From: Chloroflexota bacterium | GTDB taxonomy: Bacteria; Chloroflexota; Dehalococcoidia; SM23-28-2; RBG-16-64-32 | Reading direction: 5' to 3' | DNA length: 64,000 nt | NCBI GenBank assembly: GCA_037441345.1 | Contig: JBBISJ010000001.1 | Location: 67,660 to 131,659, forward strand | In this document: positions 20,664 to 36,096 of the stretch, one piece after another | Position numbering within the stretch: the stretch's first letter is position 1 | How the letters are laid out: every line of letters begins with the position of its first letter | Notes under the pieces: generated by a model | Told to the model about the DNA's origin: nothing | Database searches by the model: none | What the model saw: only the letters and a program-made list of their open reading frames with translations | Translations under genes and position numbers: made by a program

Positions 20664-20728
20664 TCTGCGTGCCTGAACCGGACACGTCGACTCTCGACCC
20701 CCAACCCTCGACCCCATACACTCTCCTC

Positions 20729-22543
20729 ATGCTCAAAGACCGTTCCTGCGGCGAACTGCGCGCTTCGGACGAAGGGGCATCCGTCACGCTCGCCGGATGG
20801 GTGCACCGACGCCGCGACCACGGTGGCCTCATCTTCATCGACCTGCGTGACCACACCGGCCTCGTGCAGGTCGTGTTCAACCCCAGGGAGGCAGCGGACG
20901 CCCACACGGTCGCTGAGCAGTTCCGCGGGGAGTATGTCGTGCAGGTGAAGGGCGCTGTCGCGAAGCGGCGTCCTGGTACGGAGAACGCGGACCTGGCCAC
21001 GGGCGAAATCGAAATAAAGGCCATGGAGGCGCGGGTACTGAACCCGGCGAAGACACCGCCCTTCTACATAACCGAGGACACGGAGGTGGAGGAGTTGCTG
21101 CGCCTCCGCTACCGGTACCTCGATCTCCGGCGGGACGGAATGCACGCCAACATTGTGATGCGCGCCCGCATGAACCAGCTGATCCGCGACTTCATGGCAG
21201 GCCGCGGTTTCATCGAAATCGAAACGCCCATCCTCACGGCGCCGACGCCGGAGGGCGCGCGCGACTACGTCGTTCCCAGCCGCGTCAACCCCGGGCGCTT
21301 CTACGCGCTGCCGCAGAGCCCGCAGCAGATGAAGCAGATCCTGATGGTCGCGGGGTTCGAGCGGTACTACCAGATCGCCCGCTGCTTTCGCGACGAGGAC
21401 GTGCGGGCAGACCGCCAGCCGGAGTTCACGCAGCTTGACATCGAGATCAGCTTTGCGGAGGAAGAAGACCTCCTGGAGCTGATGGAATCCCTCTACACCA
21501 AGATGTTCCGGGAGCTGCGTCCGGACCTGGAACTGGTGACGCCGTTTCCGCGGCTCACGTATGAAGAGGCGATGCGCCGCTGGGGAAGCGATAAGCCGGA
21601 CCTGAGGTTTGGCATGGAGCTTGTCACCTTCAACGAGGCCCTGGAGGAGTCGGAGTTCCAGGTGTTCCGCAACGTCATCGGTTCCGGCGGCGTCATCCGC
21701 GGCCTCACCGTGCCCGGTGGCGCGGAGATGAGCCGCAAGCAGGTCGACGATCTGACGACGTTCGTACAGCAGTACGGGGCGCGCGGCCTGGTCTCCATGC
21801 AACTCACCGGCGAAGGCGATATCGGATCGCTCACCACGGATGACGTCAAGTCTCCGGTCGCGAAGTTCTTCTTGGCCGAGCAAGTCCGGGAGATGGCGCG
21901 GATGGCCGGGGCGAAACGCGGCGACATGCTCCTCATGGTCGCGGACAGGCTGGATGCGGCCAACAAGACGCTGGACGCGCTCAGGCGGGAACTCGGTCGG
22001 CGGCTGAATCTCATCGACGACTCGGTACGGCACTTCGCCTTCGTGACAAACTTCCCGCTGTTTGAGTGGAGCGCGGAGGACGAGCGCTGGTACTCCGTCA
22101 CGCATCCGTTCACGGCCGCACTTCCGGCCGAGGAGCACCTGCTGGACACCGACCCCGGCGCAATCCACAGCCGCTCGTACGACCTGATCTGCAACGGCTG
22201 GGAGCTGGGCGGCGGCAGCATCCGTATCCACGGCAGGGAGATGCAGTCGAAGGTCTTCGGAATCCTCGGCATCGGCGAAGAGGAGGCCCAGCGCAAGTTC
22301 GGCCACATGCTGGAGGCGTTCGAGTTTGGCGCCCCGCCCCACGGTGGCACGGCGATGGGGATGGACCGCACTGCGGCCCTCCTTGTCGGCACGGATGACA
22401 TCCGTGACGTCATGGCGTTCCCCAAGACCAAGTCCGCGTCCGACCCGATGACCGGCGCGCCGGCTCGGGTCAGCGGCGATCAGCTGGATGAGCTGCACAT
22501 CGAGGTGGGGGACGTCGAGGACGTGGGGGAGGGGGAAGATTGA
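20729..22543 (+). CDS. aspS: aspartate--tRNA ligase
   Basis: collinear with E. coli AspS from MLKDRSCGELR…; class II motifs (FRDEDLRADRQPEFTQLD, GGGSIRIH, GLDRT); start at ATG 20729 by N-terminal alignment. Confidence 0.9.
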   Translation: MLKDRSCGELRASDEGASVTLAGWVHRRRDHGGLIFIDLRDHTGLVQVVFNPREAADAHTVAEQFRGEYVVQVKGAVAKRRPGTENADLATGEIEIKAMEARVLNPAKTPPFYITEDTEVEELLRLRYRYLDLRRDGMHANIVMRARMNQLIRDFMAGRGFIEIETPILTAPTPEGARDYVVPSRVNPGRFYALPQSPQQMKQILMVAGFERYYQIARCFRDEDVRADRQPEFTQLDIEISFAEEEDLLELMESLYTKMFRELRPDLELVTPFPRLTYEEAMRRWGSDKPDLRFGMELVTFNEALEESEFQVFRNVIGSGGVIRGLTVPGGAEMSRKQVDDLTTFVQQYGARGLVSMQLTGEGDIGSLTTDDVKSPVAKFFLAEQVREMARMAGAKRGDMLLMVADRLDAANKTLDALRRELGRRLNLIDDSVRHFAFVTNFPLFEWSAEDERWYSVTHPFTAALPAEEHLLDTDPGAIHSRSYDLICNGWELGGGSIRIHGREMQSKVFGILGIGEEEAQRKFGHMLEAFEFGAPPHGGTAMGMDRTAALLVGTDDIRDVMAFPKTKSASDPMTGAPARVSGDQLDELHIEVGDVEDVGEGED

Positions 22544-22899
22544 CGCGCGGGTGCTCGTCCGCTCATCCTGGGCCCGTCGAAGGACCGTCCGCGGAGCGGA
22601 CTGCACGGACTGAGCTCGCCGAAGTCCTTCCGGGGGTCAAGGCTTCCTCGTAGGTAGTTACCCTTGATAAGCGCTTCCTTCTTCGTGCGTGACCATCCCT
22701 TCAACTGCCGCTCTCGCGCGAAGGCCTGTTCCCTGTCGGGGAAGTCCTCCACGTACGCCAGCCTGAGCGGACGGCGCTCTCTGGTGCAACCGTCATATTC
22801 GCCCGCTTTGTGCTGCGCCTGGCGGCAGTCAATGTCGTCGGTGTGGCCGGCGTAGTATGAACCGTCCCGGCACCTCAGCAGATAGACGTAGAACGTCAT
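22480..22899 (-). CDS. GIY-YIG domain nuclease family protein
   Basis: FYVYLLRCRDGSYYAGHTDDIDCRQAQH; 3' end overlaps aspS 3' end (convergent); upstream ATTGTAGGG element shared with other GIY-YIG genes. Confidence 0.7.
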   Translation of the reverse strand: MTFYVYLLRCRDGSYYAGHTDDIDCRQAQHKAGEYDGCTRERRPLRLAYVEDFPDREQAFARERQLKGWSRTKKEALIKGNYLRGSLDPRKDFGELSPCSPLRGRSFDGPRMSGRAPARQSSPSPTSSTSPTSMCSSSS

Positions 22900-23122
22900 G
22901 GCCCCCTCCTCCTGTGGCTGGTCGCAGCTTCGGCAGGCTCAGCTGATTGTAGGGGCGTCCTTCGACAGGCTCAGGATGAGCGGAGTGGAACGCGACGCGC
23001 AACGAATCCCCGATTGCCCCGTCTATAACTGTGGTTCGCGGACGCAATTGCCTGTCCCGCCGCCGTTAAATATGATTCAGCAAACTATCGGCGCACCCCG
23101 CGCGTTCTCTAGGTAGGCACGA

Positions 23123-24796
23123 ATGGAATCCCGCAGACTCGTTTACGTACTCACAGGCATTGCCGTGGCGCTCATCCTGGTGCTTGGCGGACTCACCCTT
23201 ATCGTTGTAGCCGGCGGCGGCGATGACGACGACGGCGGTTCATCTGCCCAGAACGGCGACGACGAGTCGCCCGGCCCCGACCTGGGCGAGCGCGTCCAGG
23301 GCGAACTGCGGTTGTTCGGGCCTGACCCCCTGTCTATCGACCCCGCATGCGCTTCTGACGCCGGTTCCGCGGAGTACATTGTAGAGATCTTCTCCGGGCT
23401 GGTGTCCTTCGACCGCGACCTCAAGGTAATCCCCGACATTGCCGAGAAATGGGATGTCAGTCCGGACGGGAAGGTGTACACCTTCCATCTGCGCACGAAT
23501 GTCACCTTCCATGACAACTCACGACGCGTCACGGCCGACGACTTCAAATTCTCGATGGAGCGCGCGCTGAACCCGAGCACCCAGTCCACCGTGGCGGAGG
23601 TGTACCTGGACGATATCGTCGGGGTCGACGACTTCATCAACGGCGACGCGGAGGAAGTCACCGGCATCAAGGTGGTCAATCCTGACACCCTGGAGCTGAC
23701 GATCAACGAGCCGAGCGAAGTCTTTATCGAGAAGCTCACCTATCCGACCGCCTACGTCGTGGACTCACGCGAAGTAGGCGACTCGACTTGCTTCGAGGGC
23801 AACTGGACCCTGACGCCGAACGGCACCGGGCCGTTCAAGCTGGCGGACTGGGAGCTGGGTACAAAGATCGTCCTGGAGCCAAACGAGAACTTCTACCTGG
23901 ACCCGAAGCCTTCGCTGGCCAGGGTTACGTACATCCTCTCCGGCGGTTCATCGTTCACCATGTACGAGAACGACGAGGTGGACCTCACGGGCGTCGGCAT
24001 CAACAACATCGAGAGCGTCCGCGAAACCAGCAACCCGCTGAACGCGGAGTACCATCAGTCACCGTCGCTGGATGTCTTCTACATCGGCTTCAACGTCAAC
24101 CGGCCGCCGTTCGACGACCCGGACGTCCGCAAGGCGCTCAACATGGCGGTGGACAAGGAGTTCCTGGCCAACGAGTTCCTGATGAAGCTGGCGTCGCCGG
24201 CCAAAGGAATCCTGCCGCCCGGCATGCCCGGCTATAACGAGGACCTGGATGCGCCCGAATTCGACAAGGACGCGGCGAGCGAGCTGCTGGATTCCACCGG
24301 GAAGAAGGACGAACTGGACGGCCTCAAGATCCTGACCTCGGGCCAGGGGGCGGCGCCTTCGGACATCCTGCAGGCGGTCGTCGCTATGTGGGAGGAGAAC
24401 CTGGGCATCACGATCGAGATCGAGCAGGAGGACTTTGGCCTCTTCCTCCGCGACCTGGACGAAGGCAACTTCGACCTGTTCTCGCTCGGCTGGATCGCGG
24501 ACTACCCGGACCCGCAGAACTTCCTCGACATCAAGTTCCACTCAGACAGCGCGAACAACGAGACCGGCTACTCGAACGCGGAGGTCGATGACCTGCTGGA
24601 ACAGGCGCGCGCCGAGAAGGACGAGGCGAAGCGGTTGGAGCTGTACGGGCAGGCGGAGGAGCTGATCGCCAACGACGCCCCCTGGGTGCCTCTGTACCAC
24701 GGCACCAACAGCTACCTGGTGAAGCCGTACGTGGAGGGGTACGATGTGCCCGCGTTTGTCCTTCCCAACCTGCGCTACGTAACGATCAAAGAGTAG
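23123..24796 (+). CDS. ABC transporter substrate-binding protein, family 5 (peptide/nickel type)
   Basis: N-terminal TM/signal anchor, SBP_bac_5 signature regions. Confidence 0.85.
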   Translation: MESRRLVYVLTGIAVALILVLGGLTLIVVAGGGDDDDGGSSAQNGDDESPGPDLGERVQGELRLFGPDPLSIDPACASDAGSAEYIVEIFSGLVSFDRDLKVIPDIAEKWDVSPDGKVYTFHLRTNVTFHDNSRRVTADDFKFSMERALNPSTQSTVAEVYLDDIVGVDDFINGDAEEVTGIKVVNPDTLELTINEPSEVFIEKLTYPTAYVVDSREVGDSTCFEGNWTLTPNGTGPFKLADWELGTKIVLEPNENFYLDPKPSLARVTYILSGGSSFTMYENDEVDLTGVGINNIESVRETSNPLNAEYHQSPSLDVFYIGFNVNRPPFDDPDVRKALNMAVDKEFLANEFLMKLASPAKGILPPGMPGYNEDLDAPEFDKDAASELLDSTGKKDELDGLKILTSGQGAAPSDILQAVVAMWEENLGITIEIEQEDFGLFLRDLDEGNFDLFSLGWIADYPDPQNFLDIKFHSDSANNETGYSNAEVDDLLEQARAEKDEAKRLELYGQAEELIANDAPWVPLYHGTNSYLVKPYVEGYDVPAFVLPNLRYVTIKE

Positions 24797-24805
24797 GCCT
24801 GTCCC

Positions 24806-25786
24806 ATGCCCTCGGGCCTGGCATCCTATATCATCCGGCGCCTGGCGGTGATTCCGCTGGTCTTGCTGGTCGTCTCATTCGTTACGTTCTCCCTCGGCCG
24901 CTTCGCGCCCAGCGACTACGTTGAACTCCAGGCGGGCCCCCGCGCCAAGCCGGAGACCATCGAGCGTATCCGGGAGGATCGCGGCTTGAATGATCCGGTG
25001 TACGAGCAGTATGTGCGGTACCTGGGGAACTTCCTCACGGGTGATTTCGGCACCAGCACGAAGTACCGGTTGCCGGTCGAAGACGTGATTCTGCCGAAGC
25101 TCTGGATCACGGTTCAGCTCAATGTTGTGGTCGTGATCATCAGCTGGCTGATCGCCCTGCCCATTGGCACATGGGCGGCGCTGAGGCGAGGCACATGGCT
25201 GGACCCGCTCACCATCGGGCTCTTCCTTGTCCCCGCATCGATCCCGGTGCTTGTCGCGACGCCGATCATCCAGTGGTTGCTGGTGGTGAAGCTGTCGCTG
25301 CTGCCCAGCGGCGGCTGGTCGGACGCCGAGTACTTCGGGATTGAACTCGGCATCTTCTCGAAGCGGGCGATAATGCCCGTCCTGATCATGGCGGTGCCTT
25401 CCATCGCCGGCATCGCACGCTACATGCGGACGCAGGTGATCGATGTGCTGGACCAGGACTTCGTCCGGACGGCGAAGGCCAAAGGACTGGCGGCCAACGT
25501 TGTTGTGGTGCGCCACGTCATCCGGAACGCGATGCTGCCCATCATCACCCTGTTCGGGTTTGAGCTGGCGGCGCTGACCGCAGGATCGATCTTCGTGGAG
25601 ACACTGCTGGGTATTCCCGGCATCGGGCAGTTTGCGTTTGAGGCCGTCAACACCCGCGACTATGACGTGATCATGGCCGTAGTCATGCTGGGATCGGTGA
25701 TGTTTATGACGGCGATGCTGATCGTGGACGTCGCGTACGGATTTATTGACCCGCGCGTCCGCCTTGGCGAGGGGTTGAAGGAGTGA
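24806..25786 (+). CDS. ABC transporter permease (DppB/OppB-like)
   Basis: 6 TM, EAA-type loop …AKGL…. Confidence 0.85.
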   Translation: MPSGLASYIIRRLAVIPLVLLVVSFVTFSLGRFAPSDYVELQAGPRAKPETIERIREDRGLNDPVYEQYVRYLGNFLTGDFGTSTKYRLPVEDVILPKLWITVQLNVVVVIISWLIALPIGTWAALRRGTWLDPLTIGLFLVPASIPVLVATPIIQWLLVVKLSLLPSGGWSDAEYFGIELGIFSKRAIMPVLIMAVPSIAGIARYMRTQVIDVLDQDFVRTAKAKGLAANVVVVRHVIRNAMLPIITLFGFELAALTAGSIFVETLLGIPGIGQFAFEAVNTRDYDVIMAVVMLGSVMFMTAMLIVDVAYGFIDPRVRLGEGLKE

Positions 25787-26742
25787 GCACGTTCGAGAGC
25801 GTCGCCCAGGCGCCTTTCGCCCCTGCGGCGTCGGGTGTGCCGAGGCTGCTGCGGCGGATCATCACGCGGCCGGTGGCTGTCGGCGCGATCATGGTTATCG
25901 TCGCGATCTACATGGCAGGCATACTCGCTCCCCTGATCGCTCCGCACGGGTTTAACGAGACGGACCTGATGCACGGAAACGAAGGGCCCTCGTCAGCGCA
26001 TCTCCTGGGGACCGATCGATTGGGCCACGACCTGCTGTCGCGCTCGATCTGGTCGGCGCAGACGACAGTGATCATCTCGGTCGCCACCCTGATCAACGGT
26101 GGCCTGATCATGGGCGTCTCGCTCGGTCTGCTCGCCGGGTACCGGCGGGGGACGACTGACTTCGCCATCATGCGGCTCGGCGACATCTTTCATTCGGTGC
26201 CCACGATCCTCCTCCTGCTCATCATCAACGCCTCGCTGCGCGACCGGGTGGAACTGTGGGCGGAACAGATCAGCGATTTCACGGGAATTGGCTGGATCGG
26301 CGAGTCCGGGATGGCCAGCTACTTCCTCGTATTCGGCACGCTGTCGTTGTTCGGCTGGGTCGGCATCGCGCGCCTGGTCCGGTCACAGGTCCTTGCCCTC
26401 AGGGAGTCGCAGTATGTGATCTCCGCGCGGGCGTCTGGCGCTTCCACGGGGCGCATCCTGTTCCGCCACCTCCTGCCCAACGTCAGCAACCTCTTGATCG
26501 TGGCGCTGACGATATCGCTCGGAGGCGTGGCTGCCGCCGAGGTGGGGCTTTCGTTCCTCGGTATCGGTATCCAGGACCGGCCGACGTTTGGGCTGATGAT
26601 CGCGGAGGCCGTGGGACTCCAGAACGTCCGCGAGCACACTCACCTGATCCTGGTGCCGGGGGCCGTCATCGTCGCGCTGGTGCTCTCCTTCAATCTCCTG
26701 GGGGACCAGTTGACGGACATCCTCTCGCCCCGCCGCCGGTAG
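25783..26742 (+). CDS. ABC transporter permease (DppC/OppC-like)
   Basis: overlapping start with upstream permease; BPD_transp_1 topology. Confidence 0.85.
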   Translation: MSTFESVAQAPFAPAASGVPRLLRRIITRPVAVGAIMVIVAIYMAGILAPLIAPHGFNETDLMHGNEGPSSAHLLGTDRLGHDLLSRSIWSAQTTVIISVATLINGGLIMGVSLGLLAGYRRGTTDFAIMRLGDIFHSVPTILLLLIINASLRDRVELWAEQISDFTGIGWIGESGMASYFLVFGTLSLFGWVGIARLVRSQVLALRESQYVISARASGASTGRILFRHLLPNVSNLLIVALTISLGGVAAAEVGLSFLGIGIQDRPTFGLMIAEAVGLQNVREHTHLILVPGAVIVALVLSFNLLGDQLTDILSPRRR

Positions 26743-26789
26743 GCCGCCTGGCCATATAATACCCCCCTGCTATGGAGGGGCGACTCGAA

Positions 26790-27031
26790 CCCGCAGATCC
26801 CGTGTACCCCCGCGAACGCGTATCAGTGAGGATGAGTACCGCGACTGTGGCCTCGCGGCGCTGATTTTCGAGAGATTTGCTGACGAAGAGGTGTTCGCCA
26901 GACGCCGCTGTGCGGAAGCGGTGGTCGCGCCGAGTCCGCACAGCCTGCGGGCGATCCACGTGTACGAAAAGGCGGGATTCCAGTACCTGAAGACCGTGTG
27001 GGTGCGCAGGGACAGGCGCACGAGCATTTGA
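26790..27031 (+). pseudogene. remnant of GNAT acetyltransferase C-terminus (gene fragment)
   Basis: frame encodes …HSLRAIHVYEKAGFQYLKTVWVRRDRRTSI* resembling GNAT C-terminal motif but no N-terminal part or start; coordinates approximate. Confidence 0.3.
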
Positions 27032-27122
27032 TGGTGAAGCGGGCGCCCGCCCCCGGCTGACCGCTCGCCCGAGGTGCCACCGGCGTCGTTCCTCAACGTA
27101 CCCCCGTGCTACACTGAATTGC

Positions 27123-28499
27123 GTGAAGGTCTCGACCCAACAACTGCCTGAGAGCCAGGTCCTCCTCGAGATCGAAGTCGACTCCGAACAGCTCGAAAAG
27201 TCGATGGACCGCGCCTACCGCAAACTGGCGCAGCGAGTTGATGTTCCCGGCTTCCGTAAGGGCAAGACCCCGCGCAACATGCTGGAACGGCACGTCGGGC
27301 GCGGCCGCATCCTCGAGGAAGCGATCGATATCGCCGTCCCCGAGGCCTACAACAAGGCCCTTTTAGACCACGACATCGACGCCATCGGCCAGCCGCAGAT
27401 AGAACTGACCAGCGCCGAGCCGCTCGCCTTCAAGGCCACCGTGCCGATCCGGCCGACCGTGGAACTGGGCGATTACTCGTCGATCCGGGTGCCGCGCGAA
27501 GCGGTTGAGGTGGACGAAGGCGACGTGGACAAGACCATCGACGAGCTGCGGCGCCGCTACGCCGTGCACGAGCCGGTAGAACGCGCGGTGCAGGTGAACG
27601 ACATCATCCGCGCAGACGTACGGATCCTCGTGGACGAGAAAGAGGTCTACAAGGACGACGACGCCGAGTTGCACCTGCGCGAGGGCAAGACAGTGCTGCT
27701 GCCGGGTTTCGTCGAGGGTGTCGCCGGCGCGAAAAAGGGCACGCCAACGCAGGTGACGGTCACGGTCCCCGAGGATGCCGGCGGTTCCCTGGCCGGGAAG
27801 ACCGCGACTGTTGAAATCACCATCAAGGAAGTGAAGGAAGAGCGTCTGCCGGACCCGGACGACGACTTCGCCCAGCAGGTGGGCGAAGGGTTTGCCGGAA
27901 TCGAAGCGTTGAAGGAGCGTCTCCGCGGCGATATCCGCGAGCGCGCCGAAGGCATGGCCGAAGAGAAGTACCGCGAGGACGCGCTTACCGCGCTCGTCGA
28001 GAATGCCGCGAAGATCGAGTTCCCGCCCGTCCTGGTGGACCGGGAAATCGACCACTTCCTGCATGACCAGGCGCGCAACTCCGGCATGGACCTCGAACGC
28101 TACCTCCAGCTCGTCGGCAAGACCCCGGAAGCAGTCCGGGAGGAGTTGACGCCGAGCGCCACGCAGCGCGTCCGGCGTTCGCTGGCGCTGAGTGAGCTGG
28201 CCGAACAGGAGAAGATCGAGGTGGACGACGCTGACATCGGCGCCGAGATCGACAGCATGGTTGCGCAGGCGTCCGGCGGAAACGAAGAGCAGGCGCAGCA
28301 GTACCGGCAGCTGTTCCAGTCGCCTGAGGCGCGGGCCTCGGTGGGCCGGTCGCTGCTGACTCGCAAGACGATGGAGCGGCTGGTGGAGATCGCCGGCCAG
28401 GCGGACGGAGCGGCATCGCCAACGAAGGCAGGCGCCCGGCCGTCTAACAAGAAGGTGAAGTCCGGCGCGAAAGCCGGCAAGGGTAAGGAGGAGAAGTGA
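27123..28499 (+). CDS. tig: trigger factor
   Basis: GTG start; N-terminal ribosome-binding GFRKGK motif, PPIase middle domain. Confidence 0.9.
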
Positions 28500-29143: not shown

Positions 29144-29172
29144 ACTTGTATACATCGGGCAGGGAAGCGTAG

Positions 29173-30471
<1,299 letters not shown>

Positions 30472-30518
30472 GCGCAAGTAGCCAGTAGCAAGGAGCCAGC
30501 ACCCAGGTTTGGTTCGCA

Positions 30519-30548
30519 TTGCTCCCTGCGAGTGCGCGTTGATACACT
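30519..30548 (+). promoter_or_regulatory. candidate sigma70-type promoter for tRNA-Met
   Basis: -35 TTGCTC (30519-24), 18-nt spacer, -10 TACACT (30543-48), 10 nt before tRNA 5' end. Confidence 0.3.
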
Positions 30549-30558
30549 CGATTCCCGT

Positions 30559-30633
30559 GGCAGGGTAGCTCAGCGGCAGAGCAGGGGCTTCATAAGCCCT
30601 GTGTCGCGGGTTCGAATCCCGCCCCTGCCACCA
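30559..30633 (+). tRNA. tRNA-Met (anticodon CAT), CCA encoded
   Basis: manual cloverleaf: acceptor GGCAGGG/CCCTGCC, D-arm GCTC…GAGC, anticodon stem GGGGC/GCCCT loop TTCATAA, T-arm GCGGG-TTCGAAT-CCCGC. Confidence 0.85.
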
Positions 30634-30681
30634 AACCTTGGGCTCAGCTGGTCAACCGGGCTAGGCGAGTCCGGTCAGACC

Positions 30682-31056
30682 TCAGTGGCCTCCGAATACC
30701 CTGTAGCCCCTTGCGCGCAGCCCCCTCGCCAAGCGTGCCTCAGCATTCCTGGATTCCCCACGAGTCCGGTATGGCCCGTAGTTCCGGAAGAGTCGCTCCT
30801 TAAGCTTCAGGCCGAATTGCTTCACCTTCCCCGATGCCCTGCACCCACACAAATGCTGTTGGAATCTACACTTGGGCTCATGTGCGCTCTCGCCAACGTA
30901 CACACAAGGCTTACGGGGATCCACGCGCCCACCCGCTCCGTCCGATAACTCGATAACGTAGACGTAGAACAGAGGATCGCCTGAGCGGAATGGATTCTCG
31001 CAGATGCAGGGACAGGGCTTACTCACTGGTTTGGCTTCGAGTCTAACAGTCTGCAA
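30682..31056 (-). CDS. GIY-YIG-like nuclease family protein (divergent)
   Basis: LFYVYVIELSDG…VYVGESAHEPKCRFQQH; convergent with tRNA-Met; N-terminal extent uncertain. Confidence 0.45.
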   Translation of the reverse strand: MQTVRLEAKPVSKPCPCICENPFRSGDPLFYVYVIELSDGAGGRVDPRKPCVYVGESAHEPKCRFQQHLCGCRASGKVKQFGLKLKERLFRNYGPYRTRGESRNAEARLARGLRARGYRVFGGH

Positions 31057-31128
31057 TGGGAATTGAATGAGCCACTACCCAATTTCCCCTTGACCCTCAA
31101 CCCCAGACCCCCGACGCTCTTACCCATG

Positions 31129-32355
31129 GCGTCCATATTCGACACCCTCCAGTCCGTCATGCGGTTCGGGCCGTTGCAGGCCGATCCCGTGGAGCGGCGG
31201 CTTTCCCGGGCGGCGAACGTCGCGGACCTGCGCCGGATCGCCCGACGGCTCCTCCCCCGCGGCGTCTTCGACTACGTTGACGGCGCGGCCGAGGACGAGC
31301 TGACGATGCGCCGCAACGCGGCCGCGTTCCGCCGGGTGCAGTTCCGGCCGCGCGTGCTGTGCAACGTCAGCGACGTGGACGTCTCGACGACCCTGCTTGG
31401 CAAGCCACTGGCCTACCCGCTCGTCCTCGCCCCCACCGGCTTCACGCGCATGGTGGAGCCGCAGGGCGAGCTGGCCGTCGCGCGGGCGGCGGCGCGGGCG
31501 GAGATTCCGTACACCCTGTCCACGATGGGCACGCGTTCGATCGAGGAGGTCGCGGCCGTCTCCTCGGGCCGCAAGTGGTTCCAGGTCTATGTCTGGCGGG
31601 ACCGAGACCTGGTGAAGGACATGCTTGATCGCGCCGCTGCCGCGGACTATGAGGCGATCGTCATCACCGTCGATGTCCCCGTGCTGGGGCGGCGCGAGCG
31701 CGATATCCGCACGGGCTTCACGCTCCCCCCGCGGCTGGGGATCGACACGATCATCGACGGGTTGCTGCATCTCGGCTGGACACTGAATTTCATGCGGGCC
31801 GAGCCGATCTCGTTCGCGAACATCTTCCACATGGAGGGCGTCAGTTCCACCAGCCCCGTGTCCCTGGCCCAGCACGTGAACAGCCAGTTCGACCCGCGCC
31901 TCTCCTGGGACGATATCGGCTGGTTCCGCTCGAACTGGCAGGGCCCGATCGTCATCAAGGGCATCCAGACCGTCGAGGACGCGCGCATCGCCGCAGACGT
32001 TGGCGTCGAAGCGATTGCCCTCTCGAACCACGGCGGCCGCCAGATGGACGGCGCCCCGCCGCCGCTCGAACTGGTCGCGCCTGTCGCGGAAGCTGTTGGA
32101 GACCGCGTCGAGATCATCTGCGACGGCGGCGTCCGCCGGGGGAGCGATATTGCGAAGGCCGTGGCCCTGGGCGCGCGGGCGTGCATGGCCGGCCGCCCCT
32201 ATCTGTACGGCCTCGCCGCCGGCGGCGAACGCGGCGTCGACTTCGTGCTCGCCATGCTCCGCGCCGGCCTGAAACAGACGTTGGCCCTGGCCGGCGTGAC
32301 ACGCATCGAGGAGCTGACGCCGGAACTTGTGGAGTGGCGGACGCCACGCCCATAA
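31129..32355 (+). CDS. FMN-dependent alpha-hydroxy-acid dehydrogenase/oxidase (LldD/glycolate oxidase family)
   Basis: start MASIFDTL; family motifs …SNHGGRQ…, TIM-barrel FMN site. Confidence 0.8.
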   Translation, partial: ASIFDTLQSVMRFGPLQADPVERRLSRAANVADLRRIARRLLPRGVFDYVDGAAEDELTMRRNAAAFRRVQFRPRVLCNVSDVDVSTTLLGKPLAYPLVLAPTGFTRMVEPQGELAVARAAARAEIPYTLSTMGTRSIEEVAAVSSGRKWFQVYVWRDRDLVKDMLDRAAAADYEAIVITVDVPVLGRRERDIRTGFTLPPRLGIDTIIDGLLHLGWTLNFMRAEPISFANIFHMEGVSSTSPVSLAQHVNSQFDPRLSWDDIGWFRSNWQGPIVIKGIQTVEDARIAADVGVEAIALSNHGGRQMDGAPPPLELVAPVAEAVGDRVEIICDGGVRRGSDIAKAVALGARACMAGRPYLYGLAAGGERGVDFVLAMLRAGLKQTLALAGVTRIEELTPELVEWRTPRP

Positions 32356-32403
32356 CACCCTTTACTCTTCACTCTCTACTCTTCACCATTCACTATTAAC
32401 CCC

Positions 32404-33324
32404 ATGTCCGCCCTCGCCGCCGCCTGGCGCGACCCGTCCCCGCTCGCCGCTCGGCTGATGCTGTTTGCCGCGGCCTGCTTCTGGAGCATCGGCGGGTTGC
32501 TGATCAAGGAGATCGACACAGGTGCGCTCAACATCGTCTTCTTCCGCTGCCTCTTCTCGGCCCTGCTGCTCGTGCCCTTTCTCCGGGGCCGCAGATTCCC
32601 CACCGGGCGTGACACCGGGATTGCCGTCGCCGTCTTCGCGCTGCTGCTCGTCCTCTTCGTAGCGGCGACCAAGGAGACGACGGCCGCCAACGCCATATTT
32701 CTCCAGTACACCGCGCCTGTCTGGGTCGTCGTCTTCGCGCCGCTCCTGCTCAACGAACACCTCCGCCGGAGCGACGCCCTGCCGCTCGCCGTCTGCCTCG
32801 GCGGCATCGCCGTCCTCTTCGCCGGGAACTGGAGCAGCGGCGACGAGCTGGGCCTGGTGATGGGCACGGGAAGCGGCCTCTTCTTCGGTCTCTACTTCAT
32901 CTGGTTGCGCCGGATGCGCTACGCCCACCCCGTCGCGATCACCGCAGTGAGCTGCGCCGGCGTGGCGGCCCTCCTCTTGCCCGTGCCGTTCTTCCAGGCG
33001 GTCAGTCTGGAGGCCCTCGGCCTGCTCGTGGTGATGGCGGCGTTCCAGTTCGCGCTGCCCTACGTGCTGGTCGCGCGGGGAATGGCGCACGTCGGCGGCG
33101 CCGAGGCCAGCCTGATCGCCCTGGTCGAGCCGGTCCTCAATCCGGTCTGGGTCGCCCTGTTTTACGGTGAAGACCCGTCGGCCGCCACGATCATCGGCGG
33201 CGCTGTGATCCTGGCCGGGCTCGGCCTGAGATACTCCGTCTTCCGGCCCCCCTCGGAGGAGGCGCCAGCAGAGCCGGCAGCGGAGGCCGGTGGCGGGCCG
33301 CTCTTCAGTGGGCCGTCGGGCTAG
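32404..33324 (+). CDS. DMT superfamily (EamA) transporter
   Basis: two EamA repeats, 10 predicted TM helices. Confidence 0.75.
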   Translation: MSALAAAWRDPSPLAARLMLFAAACFWSIGGLLIKEIDTGALNIVFFRCLFSALLLVPFLRGRRFPTGRDTGIAVAVFALLLVLFVAATKETTAANAIFLQYTAPVWVVVFAPLLLNEHLRRSDALPLAVCLGGIAVLFAGNWSSGDELGLVMGTGSGLFFGLYFIWLRRMRYAHPVAITAVSCAGVAALLLPVPFFQAVSLEALGLLVVMAAFQFALPYVLVARGMAHVGGAEASLIALVEPVLNPVWVALFYGEDPSAATIIGGAVILAGLGLRYSVFRPPSEEAPAEPAAEAGGGPLFSGPSG

Positions 33325-33347
33325 GCCATCGCTGTCGCGCCCTTATA

Positions 33348-34058
33348 ATGGATAGCGAGGAGCCGCCCGCTTCATCCGTGAAGAAGATCCTGGTAGTCGA
33401 CGACGAGCCCACGCTGCTCGCGGCGCTCAAGTACAACCTGGAGCGGGAGAACTTCCAGGTCGACACGGCAGCCGATGGCGAACAGGCGCTCCACGTGGCC
33501 CGTACCCTGAATCCCGACCTGGTGATCCTCGACCTGATGCTGCCAGGGATGAGCGGCCTCGACGTCTGCCGTGTCCTGCATAAGGAGATGACGGTGCCCA
33601 TTCTCATGCTCACCGCCAGGGACTCGGAGGTCGACAAGGTGGTCGGCCTGGAGATCGGCGCGGACGACTACGTGACCAAGCCGTACAGCACGCCGGAGCT
33701 GATGGCGCGGGTACGTGCCCTGCTCCGGCGGGCTGATACCGGCGGCGCAGTTACCCGGGACGTGGTGACGTGCGGGGACATACGCATCGACCCCGCCCGT
33801 CACGAGGCCAGGCGTGGCTCGGAGACGATGCACCTGAAGCCGAAGGAGTTCGACCTCCTGCTCCACTTCGCGCGGCACCCGGGCCGTGCTTTCACCCGTG
33901 AGCAACTGCTGAGCGAGATCTGGGGCTACGACTTCGCCGGCGACACGCGCACGGTGGACGTGCACGTGCGCTGGCTGCGGCAGAAGATCGAGGATTCACC
34001 GGGGGAGCCCCGCCGCCTTGTGACGGTGCGAGGCACCGGGTACAGGTTCGAAGGCTGA
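33348..34058 (+). CDS. OmpR-family response regulator
   Basis: receiver domain (ILVVDDEP…D…K) and winged-helix trans_reg_C (…RVDVHVRWLRQKIE…VRGTGYRF). Confidence 0.9.
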   Translation: MDSEEPPASSVKKILVVDDEPTLLAALKYNLERENFQVDTAADGEQALHVARTLNPDLVILDLMLPGMSGLDVCRVLHKEMTVPILMLTARDSEVDKVVGLEIGADDYVTKPYSTPELMARVRALLRRADTGGAVTRDVVTCGDIRIDPARHEARRGSETMHLKPKEFDLLLHFARHPGRAFTREQLLSEIWGYDFAGDTRTVDVHVRWLRQKIEDSPGEPRRLVTVRGTGYRFEG

Positions 34059-35443
34059 TGGTGCGCCGGTTCCGCTGGCAGGCGCTGCTTGCTTACGTGC
34101 TGGCGGTTGCGGCTGTCGCGTTGGCCCTCGCCGCCGGCAACGGTACGGCCGTGATCATCGCGGCGGCGGTCCTCCTGGCGCTGTCGGCGCTGCTCCTCTG
34201 GCGCGCGACCGGTAAGGTGGCGGGCTTCGCGCGGATGCTGGCCGGCGCTTCCCGGGAAGTCGCGGACGGCGTGCTGACCACGCGCCTGGACCTGCCCGCG
34301 GGTGACGAGATGGGGCACGTGGCCGACGAGTTCAACCGCATGGCGTCGAAGTTGGAGAAGCGCGTGGCCGCCGCCGCCCAGGAGCGTAACCGCCTGATCG
34401 CCGCGATCAACGCCAGCGTGGACGGACTGGTCGCCGTGGACGCGCACAACACGATCACGTTTGCCAACTCCGCCGTGAAGACGCTGCTGGGCAAAGACCC
34501 GGAGCAGATGACCGGCGAAGGGTTCGCCTGGCTGATGTCCGACCCCGCCGTCATCCAGGGGTTGAAGGAGTGCCGCGCCAACCGCGTGCGCAGCAGCCAC
34601 GTGATCGAGCGGCCGGGCCGCCGATATCTGCGGGCAATCATCACTCCGATCCAGGGCGGCGGCGACTGGTCGGCGCTCGTCGTCTTCCACGACCTCACCG
34701 ACATCCGCCGGTCCGAAGTGATGCGCCGGGACTTCGTCGCCAACGTCTCGCACGAGTTACGCACGCCGCTGGCCGCAATAAAGGCGGTGGTCGAGACGCT
34801 ACAGGGAGGCGCCATCGACGAGCGGGCGACCGCCCTGGACTTCCTCCGCCGCGCCGACGACGAGGTCGACCGCCTGGTGCAGATGGTGGAGGAACTGCTC
34901 GACCTCTCCCGCCTCGAGGCCGGCGAACTCACGCTCTCGGCCGAAGGGATCGACCTCGCCGCTCTCGCCGCGATGGCCGTCGACCGGCTGCGCCCCCAGG
35001 CGGACCTGTGCGACGTTGCGATGACCCTGCATGCCCCTGACCCGGTGCCGCCGGTCCAGGGCGACCGCGCCACCCTTGAGCGCGCCATCGTGAACCTGGT
35101 GCATAACGCCGTCAAGTTCACGCCGGACGGCGGCCGGATTGACGTCTCCGTGGAGCCGGTCCGCGGCGGCGTCCTCGTCTCCGTCTCCGACACCGGCGTC
35201 GGCATCGACGAGGCCGACCTGCCGCGCGTCTTCGAGCGCTTCTACAAGGCCGACCGCGCCCGCCGGGCCGGAGGCACGGGCCTCGGGCTGGCGCTGGTCA
35301 AGCACACGGTCGAGGCGCACGGCGGTCACGTCGAGGCGCACAGCGAGGCGGGCCACGGCGCCACGTTCACGGTATGGCTTCCTGCCGTTCCTGCGGAGGA
35401 AGCGCCCGAACCGGCCACCTCAACTACGAGCCGGCGTCAGTAA
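34058..35443 (+). CDS. sensor histidine kinase (HAMP-PAS-HisKA-HATPase_c)
   Basis: H-box SHELRTPL, N/G1/G2 boxes (LVHNAVKFTP, DTGVGI, GGTGLGL); ATGGTG overlap with regulator. Confidence 0.85.
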   Translation: MVRRFRWQALLAYVLAVAAVALALAAGNGTAVIIAAAVLLALSALLLWRATGKVAGFARMLAGASREVADGVLTTRLDLPAGDEMGHVADEFNRMASKLEKRVAAAAQERNRLIAAINASVDGLVAVDAHNTITFANSAVKTLLGKDPEQMTGEGFAWLMSDPAVIQGLKECRANRVRSSHVIERPGRRYLRAIITPIQGGGDWSALVVFHDLTDIRRSEVMRRDFVANVSHELRTPLAAIKAVVETLQGGAIDERATALDFLRRADDEVDRLVQMVEELLDLSRLEAGELTLSAEGIDLAALAAMAVDRLRPQADLCDVAMTLHAPDPVPPVQGDRATLERAIVNLVHNAVKFTPDGGRIDVSVEPVRGGVLVSVSDTGVGIDEADLPRVFERFYKADRARRAGGTGLGLALVKHTVEAHGGHVEAHSEAGHGATFTVWLPAVPAEEAPEPATSTTSRRQ

Positions 35444-35533
35444 GACCGGCCCCGACGGCAGCGGGAAGCTGTCCTACAGCTCCTTCGCTCACGTGGCGAG
35501 GGCCGCACGATGAGAGGCGACGCCTGGAACCAC

Positions 35534-35610
35534 TGGTGGGCGATGCTGGACTCGAACCAGCGACCTTCTCGGTGTAAGCGAGACGCTCTGACCAACTGAG
35601 CTAATCGCCC
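35534..35610 (-). tRNA. tRNA-Val (anticodon TAC), CCA encoded
   Basis: manual cloverleaf on minus strand: GGGCGAT-TA-GCTC-AGTTGGTCA-GAGC-G-TCTCG-CTTACAC-CGAGA-AGGTC-GCTGG-TTCGAGT-CCAGC-ATCGCCC-A-CCA. Confidence 0.85.
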
Positions 35611-35778
35611 GTATTTGTGGCCTTTGTGTAGGCGAGACGCTCTGACCCCCGCCAGAGGCGGGTCCGCCTCCGGCGGAAACTGAGCTAATCGCCCGTATTT
35701 GTGGCCTTTGTGTAGGCGAGACGCTCTGACCCCCGCCAGAGGCGGGTCCGCCTCCGGCGGAAACTGAGCTAATCGCCC
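35611..35778 (-). repeat. two identical tandem 84-nt units, each a tRNA-Val 5' half (acceptor 5' strand, D-arm, anticodon stem/loop) carrying a 30-nt hairpin insertion in the D-loop plus a 15-nt spacer
   Basis: 35611-35694 and 35695-35778 identical; minus-strand reading GGGCGATTAGCTCAGTT[TCCGCCGGAGGCGGACCCGCCTCTGGCGGG]GGTCAGAGCGTCTCGCCTACAC+AAAGGCCACAAATAC. Confidence 0.85.
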
Positions 35779-35819
35779 ACGCTTGCTCCTATTGTAGGGT
35801 GGGCGTCGCGTGACGGGAA
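35779..35819 (-). promoter_or_regulatory. 41-nt conserved element (GATTCCCGTCACGCGACGCCCACCCTACAATAGGAGCAAGCGT on minus strand) with TACAAT -10-like box immediately upstream of the tRNA-half repeats
   Basis: begins directly after GIY-YIG stop; second copy at 36164-36204; TACAAT 12 nt before repeat 5' end; -35 not convincing. Confidence 0.35.
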
Positions 35820-36074
35820 TCAGGACCCGTCGCCAGCAATCTGATCGCGCAGCTTCCTGCCTGCACCCGATTTGAGGAATCGCTCACGCTGAGCTGCCTC
35901 AAAGCGAGTCGCGTATTCCTCAAAGAACAGCAGCTTGAGGGGCCGGTTTGCCCTGGTCCAGGCGTTGGAGCCGTTGTTGTGCTCACGGAGCCGGAGACCT
36001 GGGTTCCTGCTTGTCATTCCAACATACCGCTTGCCGTTCCGGAGGCTTTCGAGGACGTACACGAAGTGGGGCAT
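35820..36074 (-). CDS. GIY-YIG nuclease family protein (84 aa)
   Basis: FVYVLESLRNGKRYVGMTSRNPGLRLREHN – canonical GIY…YVG…R…E/H…N motif set. Confidence 0.8.
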   Translation of the reverse strand: MPHFVYVLESLRNGKRYVGMTSRNPGLRLREHNNGSNAWTRANRPLKLLFFEEYATRFEAAQRERFLKSGAGRKLRDQIAGDGS

Positions 36075-36096
36075 GGAAGAACTTTGTTTGTTCGAG

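Follow-up and report, generated by a model that had tools for sequence, protein, structure and literature searches.

Minimal Slx1-like GIY-YIG nuclease genes occur in two kinds of hairpin-bearing cassette, one of them built on tRNA genes

Transfer RNA genes are classical targets for integration, which leaves partial duplicates of the tRNA. The tyrosine-integrase islands and prophages that target them rebuild an intact tRNA and leave a partial copy behind. Organellar free-standing GIY-YIG ORFs, such as that of Allomyces atp6, bring with them a replacement for part of the host gene, and the displaced fragment stays as a pseudo-copy. Stand-alone proteins of the UPF0213/COG2827 family are widespread. 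Structures of this family have been available since 2005, including the NMR structures 1zg2 (BH0048) and 1ywl (EF2693); to our knowledge, a biological role is yet to be assigned.

A "minimal", single-domain GIY-YIG form of about 85–100 amino acids has been described, the UPF0213/COG2827 family has been treated as housekeeping proteins, inherited vertically and of unknown function, and a fusion of GIY-YIG to a TrmH-like methyltransferase, an enzyme that modifies the D loop of tRNA, has been recorded (PMC1564403). In phage T4, the GIY-YIG gene segB lies in a tRNA gene cluster and promotes inheritance of its own region (PMC2330249). SLX1-SLX4 cuts branched, flap and stem-loop DNA (PMC8287910, PMC4407285). 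REP/REPIN-RAYT systems have a usually single-copy nuclease gene between inverted short palindromic hairpins, sometimes in doublets or arrays (PMC3116915, PMC3337134). In the literature searched, we found neither a link of UPF0213-type proteins to tRNA-gene duplications or flanking hairpins, nor a published description of the cassettes presented here.

The window, a stretch of 64,000 nucleotides from a Chloroflexota bacterium, contains three small GIY-YIG ORFs, located where the preliminary description had placed them:

22480–22899, minus strand: gene 1, GIY-YIG ORF (PF01541, E = 1.6e-16, 60.8 bits, cut-off 22.6; PDB 1zg2, E = 1.5e-16).
30682–31056, minus strand: gene 2, divergent GIY-YIG-like ORF, in neither cassette type (PF01541, E = 1.3e-3, 19.4 bits, under the cut-off of 22.6).
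35820–36074, minus strand: gene 3, 84-residue minimal GIY-YIG nuclease of the Slx1-like/UPF0213 type (Pfam PF01541, E = 2.8e-15, 56.8 bits, above the cut-off of 22.6; PDB 1ywl, E = 5.6e-6).

Genes 1 and 3 belong to the GIY-YIG superfamily, with profile scores above the cut-off and invariant key residues. In the gene 3 alignment these are Tyr6, Tyr17, Arg28, His32 and Glu64, and the residues equivalent to this catalytic set are also invariant in the gene 1 alignment. In phmmer searches of the PDB, 1zg2 (gene 1) and 1ywl (gene 3) were the sole matches, which fits the bacterial Slx1-like/UPF0213 stand-alone branch; TIGR01453 matched gene 3 at 14 bits (E = 0.037), below its cut-off of 56. Homologues are 80–110 residues long (92–110 for gene 1), and genes 1 and 3 resemble the UPF0213/COG2827 stand-alone proteins in their single-domain organisation and in sequence. 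Among 1.84 billion cluster representatives, 3676 clusters are related to gene 3, the homologues of which are under purifying selection (dN/dS 0.10–0.37 in five close pairs). Eukaryotic SLX1 is from the same GIY-YIG (URI) domain branch, but it depends on SLX4, contains a RING domain, is a repair enzyme and has no tie to repeats or tRNA genes. Classical GIY-YIG homing endonucleases of the I-TevI/Seg kind were ruled out, the 84-residue and about 92-residue proteins being the domain only. Classical sequence-specific homing by these proteins of 84–139 residues is doubtful, because they do not contain a DNA-binding domain.

Gene 3 is part of cassette A, which spans 35534–36205 on the minus strand:

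35534–35610, minus strand: intact tRNA-Val(TAC), the resident gene underlying the gene 3 cassette (ARAGORN; Rfam RF00005, 75 bits).
35611–35694, minus strand: ORF-less 84-nt unit nearest the tRNA, with a 15-nt spacer (35611–35625) and a partial tRNA-Val copy (35626–35694).
35695–35778, minus strand: second 84-nt unit, in tandem with the first and 100% identical to it, with its hairpin module at 35732–35761.
35779–35821, minus strand: promoter-like copy B, GATTCCCGTCACGCGACGCCCACCCTACAATAGGAGCAAGCGT, with one ATTGTAGGG at 35791–35799.
36096–36163, minus strand: partial tRNA-Val copy A, upstream of gene 3, comprising tRNA positions 1–17, the module (36117–36146) and positions 18–38.
36164–36205, minus strand: promoter-like copy A, 94% identical to copy B, with ATTGTAGGG at 36175–36183.

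Read from 5' to 3', cassette A starts with a putative promoter, tRNA-Val positions 1–17, a 30-nt module composed of two palindromic hairpins of 15 nt each, positions 18–38, a short leader and the GIY-YIG ORF. The ORF is followed by the second putative promoter, again positions 1–17, module and positions 18–38, a spacer, the same 84-nt unit once more and, at the end, the intact tRNA-Val; the 5' part of the tRNA is therefore directly repeated on either side of the gene 3 ORF. The three extra tRNA-Val 5' copies, which the preliminary description had missed, are each split in the D loop by the 30-nt hairpin insert (in the first 84-nt unit at 35648–35677, between positions 1–17 and 18–38). The modules are confined to these partial copies, and the working tRNA-Val is intact. 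The fold of the second 84-nt unit has an energy of −50.4 kcal/mol (z −7.5). Promoter-like copy A begins where the upstream gene (36205–37596) ends, at its stop codon; the TGA that terminates gene 3 is provided by the first bases of promoter-like copy B. A promoter role for copy B is suggested by its TACAAT, located 11–12 nt before tRNA position 1; a full sigma-70 consensus was searched for in this copy and not found. Gene 3 is probably transcribed from the copied tRNA promoter, and partial copy A would be the 5' leader of the predicted transcript. Rfam matches at this locus are to tRNA only, ruling out a group I intron in the tRNA gene.

The linkage of gene 3 to a tRNA gene, already pointed out in the preliminary description, holds up and shows strong conservation. 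Homologues of gene 3 occupy 46 loci that span at least six phyla (Chloroflexota, Patescibacteria, Omnitrophota, WOR-3, Planctomycetota and Pseudomonadota). In 45 of them the ORF abuts a tRNA gene in the same orientation, and these 45 also hold a hairpin-split partial copy of the adjoining tRNA. A same-strand tRNA is no more than 130 nt away in 41 loci, and four more have a tRNA split by a group I intron directly downstream; introns of this kind interrupt tRNAs at five related loci and are not part of the GIY-YIG cassette. Around homologues of gene 1, a nearby tRNA was found in none of the 60 loci scanned (Fisher p = 3e-24 for the comparison). At least eight tRNA species are occupied, patchily across phyla, and one metagenome-assembled genome has two occupied tRNA-Lys genes (L044 and L046). 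The duplicated tRNA part is mostly the 5' rather than the 3' part, and for the Dehalococcoidia tRNA-Val(gac) 5'-fragment and 3'-fragment arrangements both exist at the same tRNA. The ORF stop codon is formed by U8-A9-G10 of the tRNA in at least 16 loci (15, plus L024 by direct reading), and in tRNA-Lys loci the anticodon-stem AAGGAG comes directly after the hairpin module, at the Shine-Dalgarno position. ORF lineages follow tRNA type and host clade, making long vertical residence possible. The partial copy is, in most loci, closest to its own adjoining tRNA; this would also fit purely local duplication, and as such speaks against mobility.

In the ORF-adjoining partial copies, the 30-nt insert is placed after tRNA position 17, 12/13, 8, 36/37 or 63, and several partial copies contain two or three modules each. 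The two-hairpin structure is 99% paired, a value that is partly circular, as the modules of the covariation set were chosen as palindromic, and there are 71 compensatory cells versus 22.9 in shuffles; the inserts after the named tRNA positions were defined instead by alignment to tRNA. The pairing data gave no support to a single long hairpin as the structure of the module. Modules number 54 in gene-3-type loci, zero in gene-1-type loci and three in the window, all at tRNA-Val; unlike REPINs, they were seen only at these loci.

Like segB, the gene 3 cassette places a GIY-YIG nuclease gene among tRNA genes, but SegB-type enzymes have a DNA-binding domain, about 200 residues or more and a phage location, and come without partial tRNA duplication or hairpin module. 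With tRNA-targeting integrative elements it shares the intact tRNA beside a partial copy; it differs in having no integrase, a size of 0.3–0.4 kb rather than kilobases, a duplication that is mostly of the 5' part, and a module inside the partial copy. The likeness to ORFs of the Allomyces atp6 type is that the gene travels with a copy of part of its target and the target gene stays functional, whereas those ORFs have protein-coding targets, encode enzymes with DNA-binding regions and have no hairpin modules. The persistence of an intact tRNA target beside the nuclease gene is awkward for simple homing.

Gene 1 is surrounded by a different set of elements, which together make up cassette B (22558–22984):

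22558–22585, unstranded: downstream arm of a 28-nt inverted repeat, 93% complementary, 15 nt from the aspS stop codon.
22610–22624, unstranded: inner downstream repeat core, part of a nested 15-nt pair and inverted relative to the upstream copy.
22928–22942, unstranded: inner upstream repeat core, CTGAGCCTGCCGAAG on the sense strand, at about −40 from the start codon, matching the position of the core in homologues.
22946–22951, minus strand: TACAAT −10-like box of gene 1, within the motif of the preliminary description, 33 nt upstream of the Shine-Dalgarno sequence at 22902–22912.
22957–22984, unstranded: upstream arm of the 28-nt inverted repeat, TCCGCTCATCCTGAGCCTGTCGAAGGAC on the sense strand; one REP-like hairpin unit, its 3' stem half degenerate in the window.

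In cassette B, the ORF, with its own −10-like box and Shine-Dalgarno sequence, lies between inverted copies of the gene 1 cis element, a REP-like hairpin of about 33 nt. The domain occupies residues 1–92 (22623–22899); the coding sequence of the 47-residue tail runs through the downstream hairpin repeat and, in antisense, into the 3' end of aspS. Many homologous ORFs finish in PSTSSG, with the stop codon within the hairpin. Gene 1 had been described as flanked by a direct repeat, but both exact CTTCGRCAGGCTCAG copies (22928–22942 and 22960–22974) are upstream of the gene, and the true flanks are the arms of the 28-nt inverted repeat. The supposed direct repeat corresponds to the loop core of the REP-like hairpin. 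The consensus unit folds with an 11-bp stem; the window's own copies are half-degenerate, and local folding was not found for them. Among 80 metagenomic loci of gene 1 homologues, the core is present upstream in 53, inverted downstream in 53 and on both sides in 41, and core matches total 201 in gene-1-type loci versus 4 in gene-3-type loci; the cis contexts of genes 1 and 3 differ and are mutually exclusive. The repeat is found in genomes of both Sphingomonadales and Chloroflexota, where the surrounding genes are unrelated. The window contains the flanking copies only, and arrays are present in some of the metagenomic loci (L105, L069 and L071).

The inverted hairpin flanks (the 28-nt repeat in the window, 41–53 of the 80 loci) liken the gene 1 family to REP/REPIN-RAYT systems. 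RAYTs, however, are HUH/Y1 (TnpA_REP) transposases and the gene 1 protein is a GIY-YIG protein; REPINs number tens to hundreds of dispersed copies, whereas the gene 1 repeat is seen only beside its gene in the available sequence. A hairpin transposon of the IS200/IS605 type was ruled out: hairpins are present, but the sole protein is GIY-YIG.

Gene 2 has homologues (E down to 1e-13) most of which are annotated PF01541. It was correctly described as convergent on a tRNA gene:

30559–30633, plus strand: tRNA-Met, convergent with gene 2 and separated from it by 48 nt.

This adjacency was not seen in five other loci of the gene 2 family and looks coincidental.

The likeliest reading of genes 1 and 3 is that each belongs to a selfish or domesticated cassette in which a minimal Slx1-like nuclease is paired with its hairpin cis-sites. 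The account we favour, and hold to be probable, is one of two different cassettes, each combining a minimal Slx1-like/UPF0213 GIY-YIG nuclease with its own short palindromic hairpins. The conserved hairpin cassettes suggest that the family is mobile, a property we infer from their architecture only. In the mechanism we propose, the nuclease would be structure-specific, targeting its own hairpin or cruciform modules or the hairpin loops of tRNA genes; the cleavage of stem-loop and branched DNA by SLX1 is the basis for this proposal. The break or nick may be repaired by recombination through the tRNA homology carried on the cassette, and repair would copy module, ORF and replacement tRNA piece into the tRNA loop. 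The outcome would be a rebuilt intact tRNA and a left-over partial copy disrupted by the hairpins, and tandem ORF-less units could stem from slippage or repeated events. Cassette B might work like a REP/RAYT pair with a GIY-YIG enzyme instead. A wider generalisation is put forward tentatively, as somewhat less probable than its opposite: UPF0213/Slx1-like GIY-YIG proteins may be the sole enzyme of an unrecognised class of prokaryotic mobile elements, with 15-nt (or about 33-nt REP-like) hairpins as cis-sites, insertion guided by DNA structure (D, anticodon and T loops of tRNA genes) and a replacement tRNA piece that spares the host gene.

The preliminary description had read the three genes as paralogues within a single dispersed family of mini homing elements that share a promoter-like cis element, ATTGTAGGG(N)GGGCGTC. 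In its favour, the 9-mer ATTGTAGGG occurs three times (22946, 35791 and 36175) against 0.13 expected, always upstream of a GIY-YIG gene or tRNA-Val, and CGCCCCTACAATCAG is indeed found upstream of the Shine-Dalgarno sequence GGAGGAGGGGG of gene 1. The copies at 35791 and 36175, however, are both inside one direct repeat of about 115 nt that brackets gene 3, leaving only two independent occurrences; the motif is doubled because tRNA promoter and tRNA 5' part were duplicated together. The 9-mer is common to gene 1 and the tRNA-Val locus, but the 17-nt extended motif has no match at gene 1, and alignment of the gene 1 upstream region with the tRNA-Val locus copies gave no similarity past the 9-mer. 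With one mismatch allowed, CCTACAAT was only as frequent as background. The reverse complement, CCCTACAAT, contains TACAAT, a generic −10 box, for which a −35 partner was looked for at gene 1 and not found; the motif is missing at gene 2; and homologous loci in other organisms keep the hairpins without conserving ATTGTAGGG. Judged from these sequences, ATTGTAGGG is just the putative −10-like box of the promoters involved and not a conserved cis element. Nor do the proteins form one paralogue family: overall identity is 30–38% (38% between genes 1 and 3), gene 2 is barely alignable with gene 3, and the cis contexts are separate. The paralogue-and-motif model is largely refuted and carries very little probability; its idea of mini GIY-YIG cassettes with a conserved cis element holds insofar as genes 1 and 3 are cassette-like, the true cis elements being the hairpins. 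Slighter still is the chance that the locus is what remains of an integrase-mediated island or prophage that entered the tRNA gene, the GIY-YIG gene being a passenger. Partial duplicates at a tRNA gene are what such integration would give, but an integrase gene is absent, there is no other ORF between the repeats, the whole insert is 0.3–0.4 kb, mostly the 5' and not the 3' part is duplicated, the module splits the partial copy at fixed loop positions, and the same tiny architecture is present in 45 of the 46 loci. Least probable is a chance arrangement or repeat-assembly artefact at the tRNA-Val locus. Short-read assemblies do break in such repeats, and a Logan contig ends within unit B, but a second, independent assembly is 100% identical over ORF and unit A and the architecture recurs in dozens of unrelated assemblies, so that only the number of 84-nt units is open to an assembly effect.

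An RNA-level host function is unlikely, though of real weight. The ORF would be a stable tRNA-operon gene, the partial tRNA and hairpins a leader or trailer controlling processing, stability or translation, and the protein a participant in tRNA or RNA metabolism, without DNA movement. In favour of this role, ORF and tRNA always point the same way and often overlap, in which case RNase P cleavage would take off the ORF's stop codon; AAGGAG of the tRNA-Lys anticodon stem is at the Shine-Dalgarno position after the module; the ORFs are under purifying selection, their clades follow tRNA type, and a GIY-YIG domain is known fused to a TrmH-like methyltransferase (PMC1564403). On the other hand, the tRNA direct repeats flanking the ORF, the tandem ORF-less units and the mirror-image 5'/3' arrangements are hallmarks of DNA rearrangement. 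The occupied tRNAs belong to at least eight species and are spread patchily across phyla, several partial copies contain two or three modules, and the gene 1 family has flanking hairpins yet no tRNA. The GIY-YIG enzymes characterised to date are, as far as we know, DNA nucleases. The constant tRNA co-orientation and the leader hairpins fit an RNA-level role as well.

At least two UPF0213/COG2827 subfamilies are tied to specific hairpin repeats, and one of them to split and duplicated tRNA genes in at least six phyla; these ties provide a concrete, testable hypothesis for the function of the proteins. If the cassettes move DNA, their size of about 0.3–0.4 kb would make them the smallest autonomous nuclease-based mobile cassettes known, and their nucleases would be a new enzyme class for REP-like repeats. 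The cassette repeats break short-read assemblies at tRNA loci. The cassettes also yield pseudo-tRNA fragments and over-extended ORF calls that contaminate Patescibacteria and Chloroflexota annotation; examples of the latter are the tails PPEADQPLAE and PSTSSG and N-terminal extensions through tRNA fragments.

All three small GIY-YIG reading frames of the preliminary description were borne out at 22480-22899 (gene 1), 30682-31056 (gene 2) and 35820-36074 (gene 3), each on the minus strand, and tRNA-Met (30559-30633, plus strand) and tRNA-Val(tac) (35534-35610, minus strand) were both confirmed. Genes 1 and 3 encode clear Pfam GIY-YIG domains (E=1.6e-16 and E=2.8e-15, respectively), and by sequence their proteins fall in the bacterial Slx1-like/UPF0213 branch. 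Gene 2 is a member of a third, divergent GIY-YIG family, with a sub-threshold Pfam match (E=1.3e-3) and homologues mostly annotated PF01541. Its convergence on tRNA-Met is real, but five contexts of gene 2 homologues lack any tRNA within 1.5 kb, as well as a common inverted repeat. No repeats or hairpin modules were found around gene 2 and tRNA-Met in the window, and the convergence is best treated as coincidence.

The tRNA-Val locus was read on the minus strand, from 36205 down to 35534, and contains the following elements:

36205-36164, minus strand: promoter-like copy A, upstream of gene 3
Between copy A and the leader, minus strand: tRNA-Val positions 1-17, then a 30-nt insert, then positions 18-38
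36075-36095, minus strand: 21-nt leader
36074-35820, minus strand: gene 3
35821-35779, minus strand: promoter-like copy B
After copy B, minus strand: 84-nt unit (tRNA positions 1-17, insert, positions 18-38, 15-nt spacer)
Between the first unit and the intact tRNA, minus strand: second 84-nt unit, 100% identical to the first
Last element of the array, minus strand: intact tRNA-Val

The insert reads TCCACC-GGA-GGCGGA followed by CCCGCC-CCT-GGCGGG, and the tRNA sequence retained in the partial copies is nearly identical to the real tRNA-Val. The TGA stop of gene 3 arises at the junction with repeated host sequence, GATTCCCG, which in copy A follows the upstream gene's stop codon. The final codons of gene 3, GCT GGC GAC (Ala-Gly-Asp), appear similar to the acceptor strand of tRNA-Val; the same C-terminus is encoded by this strand in relatives, for instance GCG GGC GAT TAG in the homologous locus L003. 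An assembly artefact is unlikely: an independent Logan assembly equals window 35749-37129 at 100% identity, and breaks within the hairpin of unit B, the one following copy B. A plasmid search with this locus matched the tRNA part alone. Rfam searches of the window (gathering threshold), the tRNA-Val locus (permissive) and 26 related loci returned tRNA, tmRNA and group I introns only, with no family for the hairpins.

A shared promoter-like motif had been proposed to unite the genes. The word ATTGTAGGG does occur three times against 0.13 expected, but two of these copies sit in one ~115-nt direct repeat bracketing gene 3, and so come from one duplication, and a search for the extended 17-mer did not find it at gene 1. 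Aligned to the tRNA-Val units, the upstream region of gene 1 shares the 9-mer and no further similarity, while CCTACAAT, with one mismatch allowed, occurs at background frequency. The coding-strand form is CCCTACAAT, a TACAAT -10-like box, which at tRNA-Val lies 11-12 nt ahead of tRNA position 1, the expected place for a tRNA promoter. A sigma-70 consensus scan of both TACAAT sites gave no full promoter and no fitting -35 hexamer; the label "promoter" therefore denotes a -10 box and its position only. A promoter element uniting the genes is unlikely. The motif that prompted the analysis is ordinary, whereas the loci flagged by it are not.

A profile of gene 3 homologues yielded 46 full-length loci from one-genome-per-species contigs, in Dehalococcoidia and other Chloroflexota, many Patescibacteria, Omnitrophota, WOR-3, Planctomycetota and Pseudomonadota MAGs. 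ARAGORN places a same-strand tRNA at most 130 nt from the ORF in 41 of the 46, compared with 0/60 scanned gene-1-type loci (Fisher p=3e-24). Four loci without a call (L024, L027, L041, L042) have a group I intron directly downstream, which in L024, read directly, interrupts a tRNA-Asn gene; the remaining locus, L008, stops 91 nt past the ORF. The occupied tRNAs are Asn(gtt), Lys(ttt/ctt), Val(gac/tac), Ile(tat), Met, Ala, Pro and Arg, and in one MAG two tRNA-Lys genes are occupied (L044, L046). Most loci share one order, in which a partial 5' copy of the same tRNA precedes the ORF and the intact tRNA follows. Eight have the mirror order, intact tRNA, ORF and partial 3' copy, and both orders are seen at the same tRNA-Val(gac) locus in different Dehalococcoidia. 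In 15 loci the ORF enters the tRNA and stops at U8-A9-G10 (TAG), always in one register irrespective of which tRNA is involved; the L024 ORF stops likewise, and those of L041 and L042 end in TAG just ahead of D-arm-like sequence. Tandem ORF-less pseudo-fragments resembling the 84-nt units are present in L019, L009, L038, L044 and L046. The architecture is conserved, the intact tRNA is kept, and the ORFs are under purifying selection (dN/dS 0.10-0.37 among close pairs).

The insert was defined by aligning each intact tRNA to its own partial copy, independently of insert structure. Its length is exactly 30 nt in nearly every case; it is placed after tRNA position 17, 12/13 or 8 (D arm), 36/37 (anticodon loop) or 63 (T arm), and is present two or three times in some fragments. 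Its consensus is TC[C/A]GCC-RRA-GGC[G/T]GA then [T/C]C[C/A]GCC-TYN-GGC[G/T]G[A/G]. Across 48 distinct modules, a sample chosen for palindromy, the two-hairpin structure is 99% paired, and double-change cells number 71 against 22.9 in shuffles (0/500 reaching the observed value); the position-defined inserts show the same pattern. A single long hairpin, favoured by RNAfold for the window copy, was rejected, its comparative count being below the shuffles. A constant orientation read from the loops (RRA then TYN) was also rejected: the loop pattern is strand-symmetric, so that the module has approximate two-fold symmetry overall.

Gene 1 is accompanied by a different hairpin. Both copies of the "direct repeat" once thought to flank it lie upstream; the true flanks form a 28-nt inverted repeat with 93% complementarity (22558-22585 / 22957-22984), plus a nested 15-nt pair. 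The closest relatives of the protein, 60-65% identical, include Sphingomonadales and Chloroflexota proteins. In all four genomic contexts compared, with unrelated neighbouring genes, the repeat CCGCTCAKCCTGAGCYTGTCGAAGG is present, either 5' of the gene and inverted 3' of it or as inverted doublets. Eighty metagenomic gene-1-type loci were searched for the 16-nt core (up to 3 mismatches, 250 nt each side): it occurs forward upstream in 53/80, inverted downstream in 53/80 and on both sides in 41/80, most commonly -35 to -47 from the protein-match start and +25 to +60 past residue 82. The full REP-like unit is CCGCTCATCC-TGAGCYTGTCGAA-GGATGAGCGG, its consensus folding with an 11-bp stem (z -5.8); variants occur as doublets, as arrays and in nested form, one unit within another's loop. 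The ORFs of many homologues terminate with PSTSSG*, placing the stop codon inside the downstream hairpin. In the window the hairpin TGA is out of frame, so the gene 1 ORF runs 47 residues further, antisense to the aspS 3' end.

Each nuclease subfamily pairs exclusively with its own hairpin. Gene-3-type loci contain 54 modules over 243 kb, gene-1-type loci none over 203 kb, and the three in the window are all at tRNA-Val; matches to the gene 1 core number 201 in gene-1-type loci versus 4 in gene-3-type loci.

We rate these loci as most likely selfish nuclease cassettes with hairpin cis-sites. That a nuclease and its hairpin form a conserved cassette is very likely; that the cassette is, or once was, mobile is clearly less certain, though more likely than not. 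The gene 3 form would consist of module, short tRNA piece, ORF and replacement tRNA piece, placed at a tRNA loop, and this one scheme would cover both the 5' and the 3' arrangements; the window array would then read P-a / h-b-ORF-P-a / h-b-s-a / h-b-s-a / b-c. The ORF would be expressed from the tRNA promoter, which in the window is duplicated along with the tRNA 5' part. The cassette could have arisen through Campbell-type or gene-conversion recombination via tRNA homology, in which case only crossovers leaving the module in the partial copy would give a viable tRNA, or through local duplication, and tandem units might follow from slippage between 16-17-nt repeats. Eukaryotic members of the Slx1 branch are described as cutting branched and stem-loop DNA (PMC8287910, PMC4407285), and for this reason the nuclease may initiate such events by cleaving either its own hairpin or cruciform, or the loops of hairpins. 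This combination of hairpin cutting, tRNA-homology recombination and slippage is put forward tentatively and may well be wrong in its specifics.

The main rival, an RNA-level, host-integrated role, would account for the co-orientation, the tRNA overlap and the leader hairpins, but fits less well with repeats at the DNA level, with loci in mirror order and with a gene 1 family that lacks tRNAs; we consider it improbable. The remnant of an integrase island is unlikely too: tRNA-targeting integrative elements come near gene 3, but its cassette has no integrase. Homing endonuclease genes of the free-standing kind, for example T4 segB (PMC2330249), are also near, differing in that gene 3 lacks a DNA-binding domain. 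For gene 1, the closest functional analogue is REP/RAYT, although its cassette lacks an HUH transposase. The Slx1-like/UPF0213 branch has been described as minimal, mostly vertically inherited and of unknown role, and in one case as fused to a TrmH-like methyltransferase that acts on the tRNA D loop (Dunin-Horkawicz et al. 2006, PMC1564403). A literature search of partial coverage found no paper that connects small GIY-YIG genes of bacteria with duplicated tRNAs or with REP-like repeats, and an earlier description is possible. For a large family of orphan proteins, the cassettes offer a hypothesis that can be tested.

Among gene-1-type loci, the nested form occurs in L055, L057, L064, L074 and L109, both upstream and downstream of the ORF, with a related hairpin (e.g. 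TAGGGGCTGAGCTTGGCGAAGACCCGTA) within the loop of the first unit (CTCATCCTGAG...TCGAAGGAC), suggesting that REP-like units may insert into one another's loops. In L105 (~630-1130), an array of cores with a 99-nt period, six forward and five reverse in alternation, lies 3' of the ORF. In alphaproteobacterial loci, we read the hairpin loop as possibly giving a TTGTCG -35-like hexamer, 15-17 nt ahead of a CTAGnC or CTATnn -10-like box. Gene 1 itself (139 aa) overlaps the convergent aspS (20669-22543) by 64 nt, and its last ~47 residues (22480-22622) are a low-complexity read-through of the hairpin repeat; since its homologues terminate within the hairpin, this annotated C-terminal stretch probably does not represent functional protein.

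The partial tRNA copies mostly match another locus's tRNA no better than their neighbour's, and a foreign origin was rejected, with L012, L033 and L011 as exceptions. In L012 (3258-3437), the 5' fragment GGGCGGCTAGCTCAGT is more like another locus's tRNA than the neighbouring GGGCACTTAGCTCAGC, and in L033 (2837-2912) the partial copy is closest to the L038 tRNA-Lys; these fragments hint at possible import or replacement. Two full-length relatives were found in a scan of viral contigs, one adjoining tRNA-like sequence and a group I intron, with no sign of phages as main carriers.

Immediately 3' of the GIY-YIG ORF, group I introns (RF00028, 64-104 bits) are present at L024:1555-1826, L027:1406-1648, L041:3264-3591, L042:3348-3579 and L143:2108-2358. 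That of L024 splits the tRNA-Asn anticodon loop and is absent from the hairpin-laden partial copy 5' of the ORF; insertions of two kinds are therefore found in one and the same tRNA gene. At L003:~440-700, L034:~3310-3560 and L047:~3400-3600, an additional small GIY-YIG gene, from a different subfamily (with N-termini like VVYVLQSLKNGRYYIGYS or WYVYIIECSDNTLYVGVT), begins just 3' of the same tRNA, so some tRNAs are bracketed by two different GIY-YIG genes. Tandem partial 3' tRNA-Lys copies follow the intact gene at L019:3345-3600 (a 127-nt unit, repeated twice), L046:~640-800 and L038:~3340-3440; in these copies the 30-nt module occupies the anticodon loop, and the T loop carries another, distinct hairpin insert (e.g. 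CCTGCCCGTCCGTAGCTTTAGCGAAGGCGGG). At L019:4769-4799, 1.5 kb from the cassette, CCAGCC-CGA-GGCTGG then TCCGCC-TTG-GGCGGA fits the module; by eye it seems to fall where a DnaJ-like coding region on the opposite strand is rich in glycine, and may be due to chance.

The wider family comprises 3676 clusters at 50% identity (E<=1e-3), and peptides encoded by the hairpins are present in the N- or C-terminal extensions of 11 among the top 150 representatives. Gene calls for several homologues (P0019, P0229, P0256) start inside an upstream tRNA, N-terminal peptides such as GFKSPQVHH, GFESRP and VVGSNPS being translated tRNA T arm and acceptor end, and other calls run through hairpin modules (PPEADQPLAE, SAEGGSASGG). 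These tRNA- and module-derived N-termini are systematic over-extensions in public annotations.
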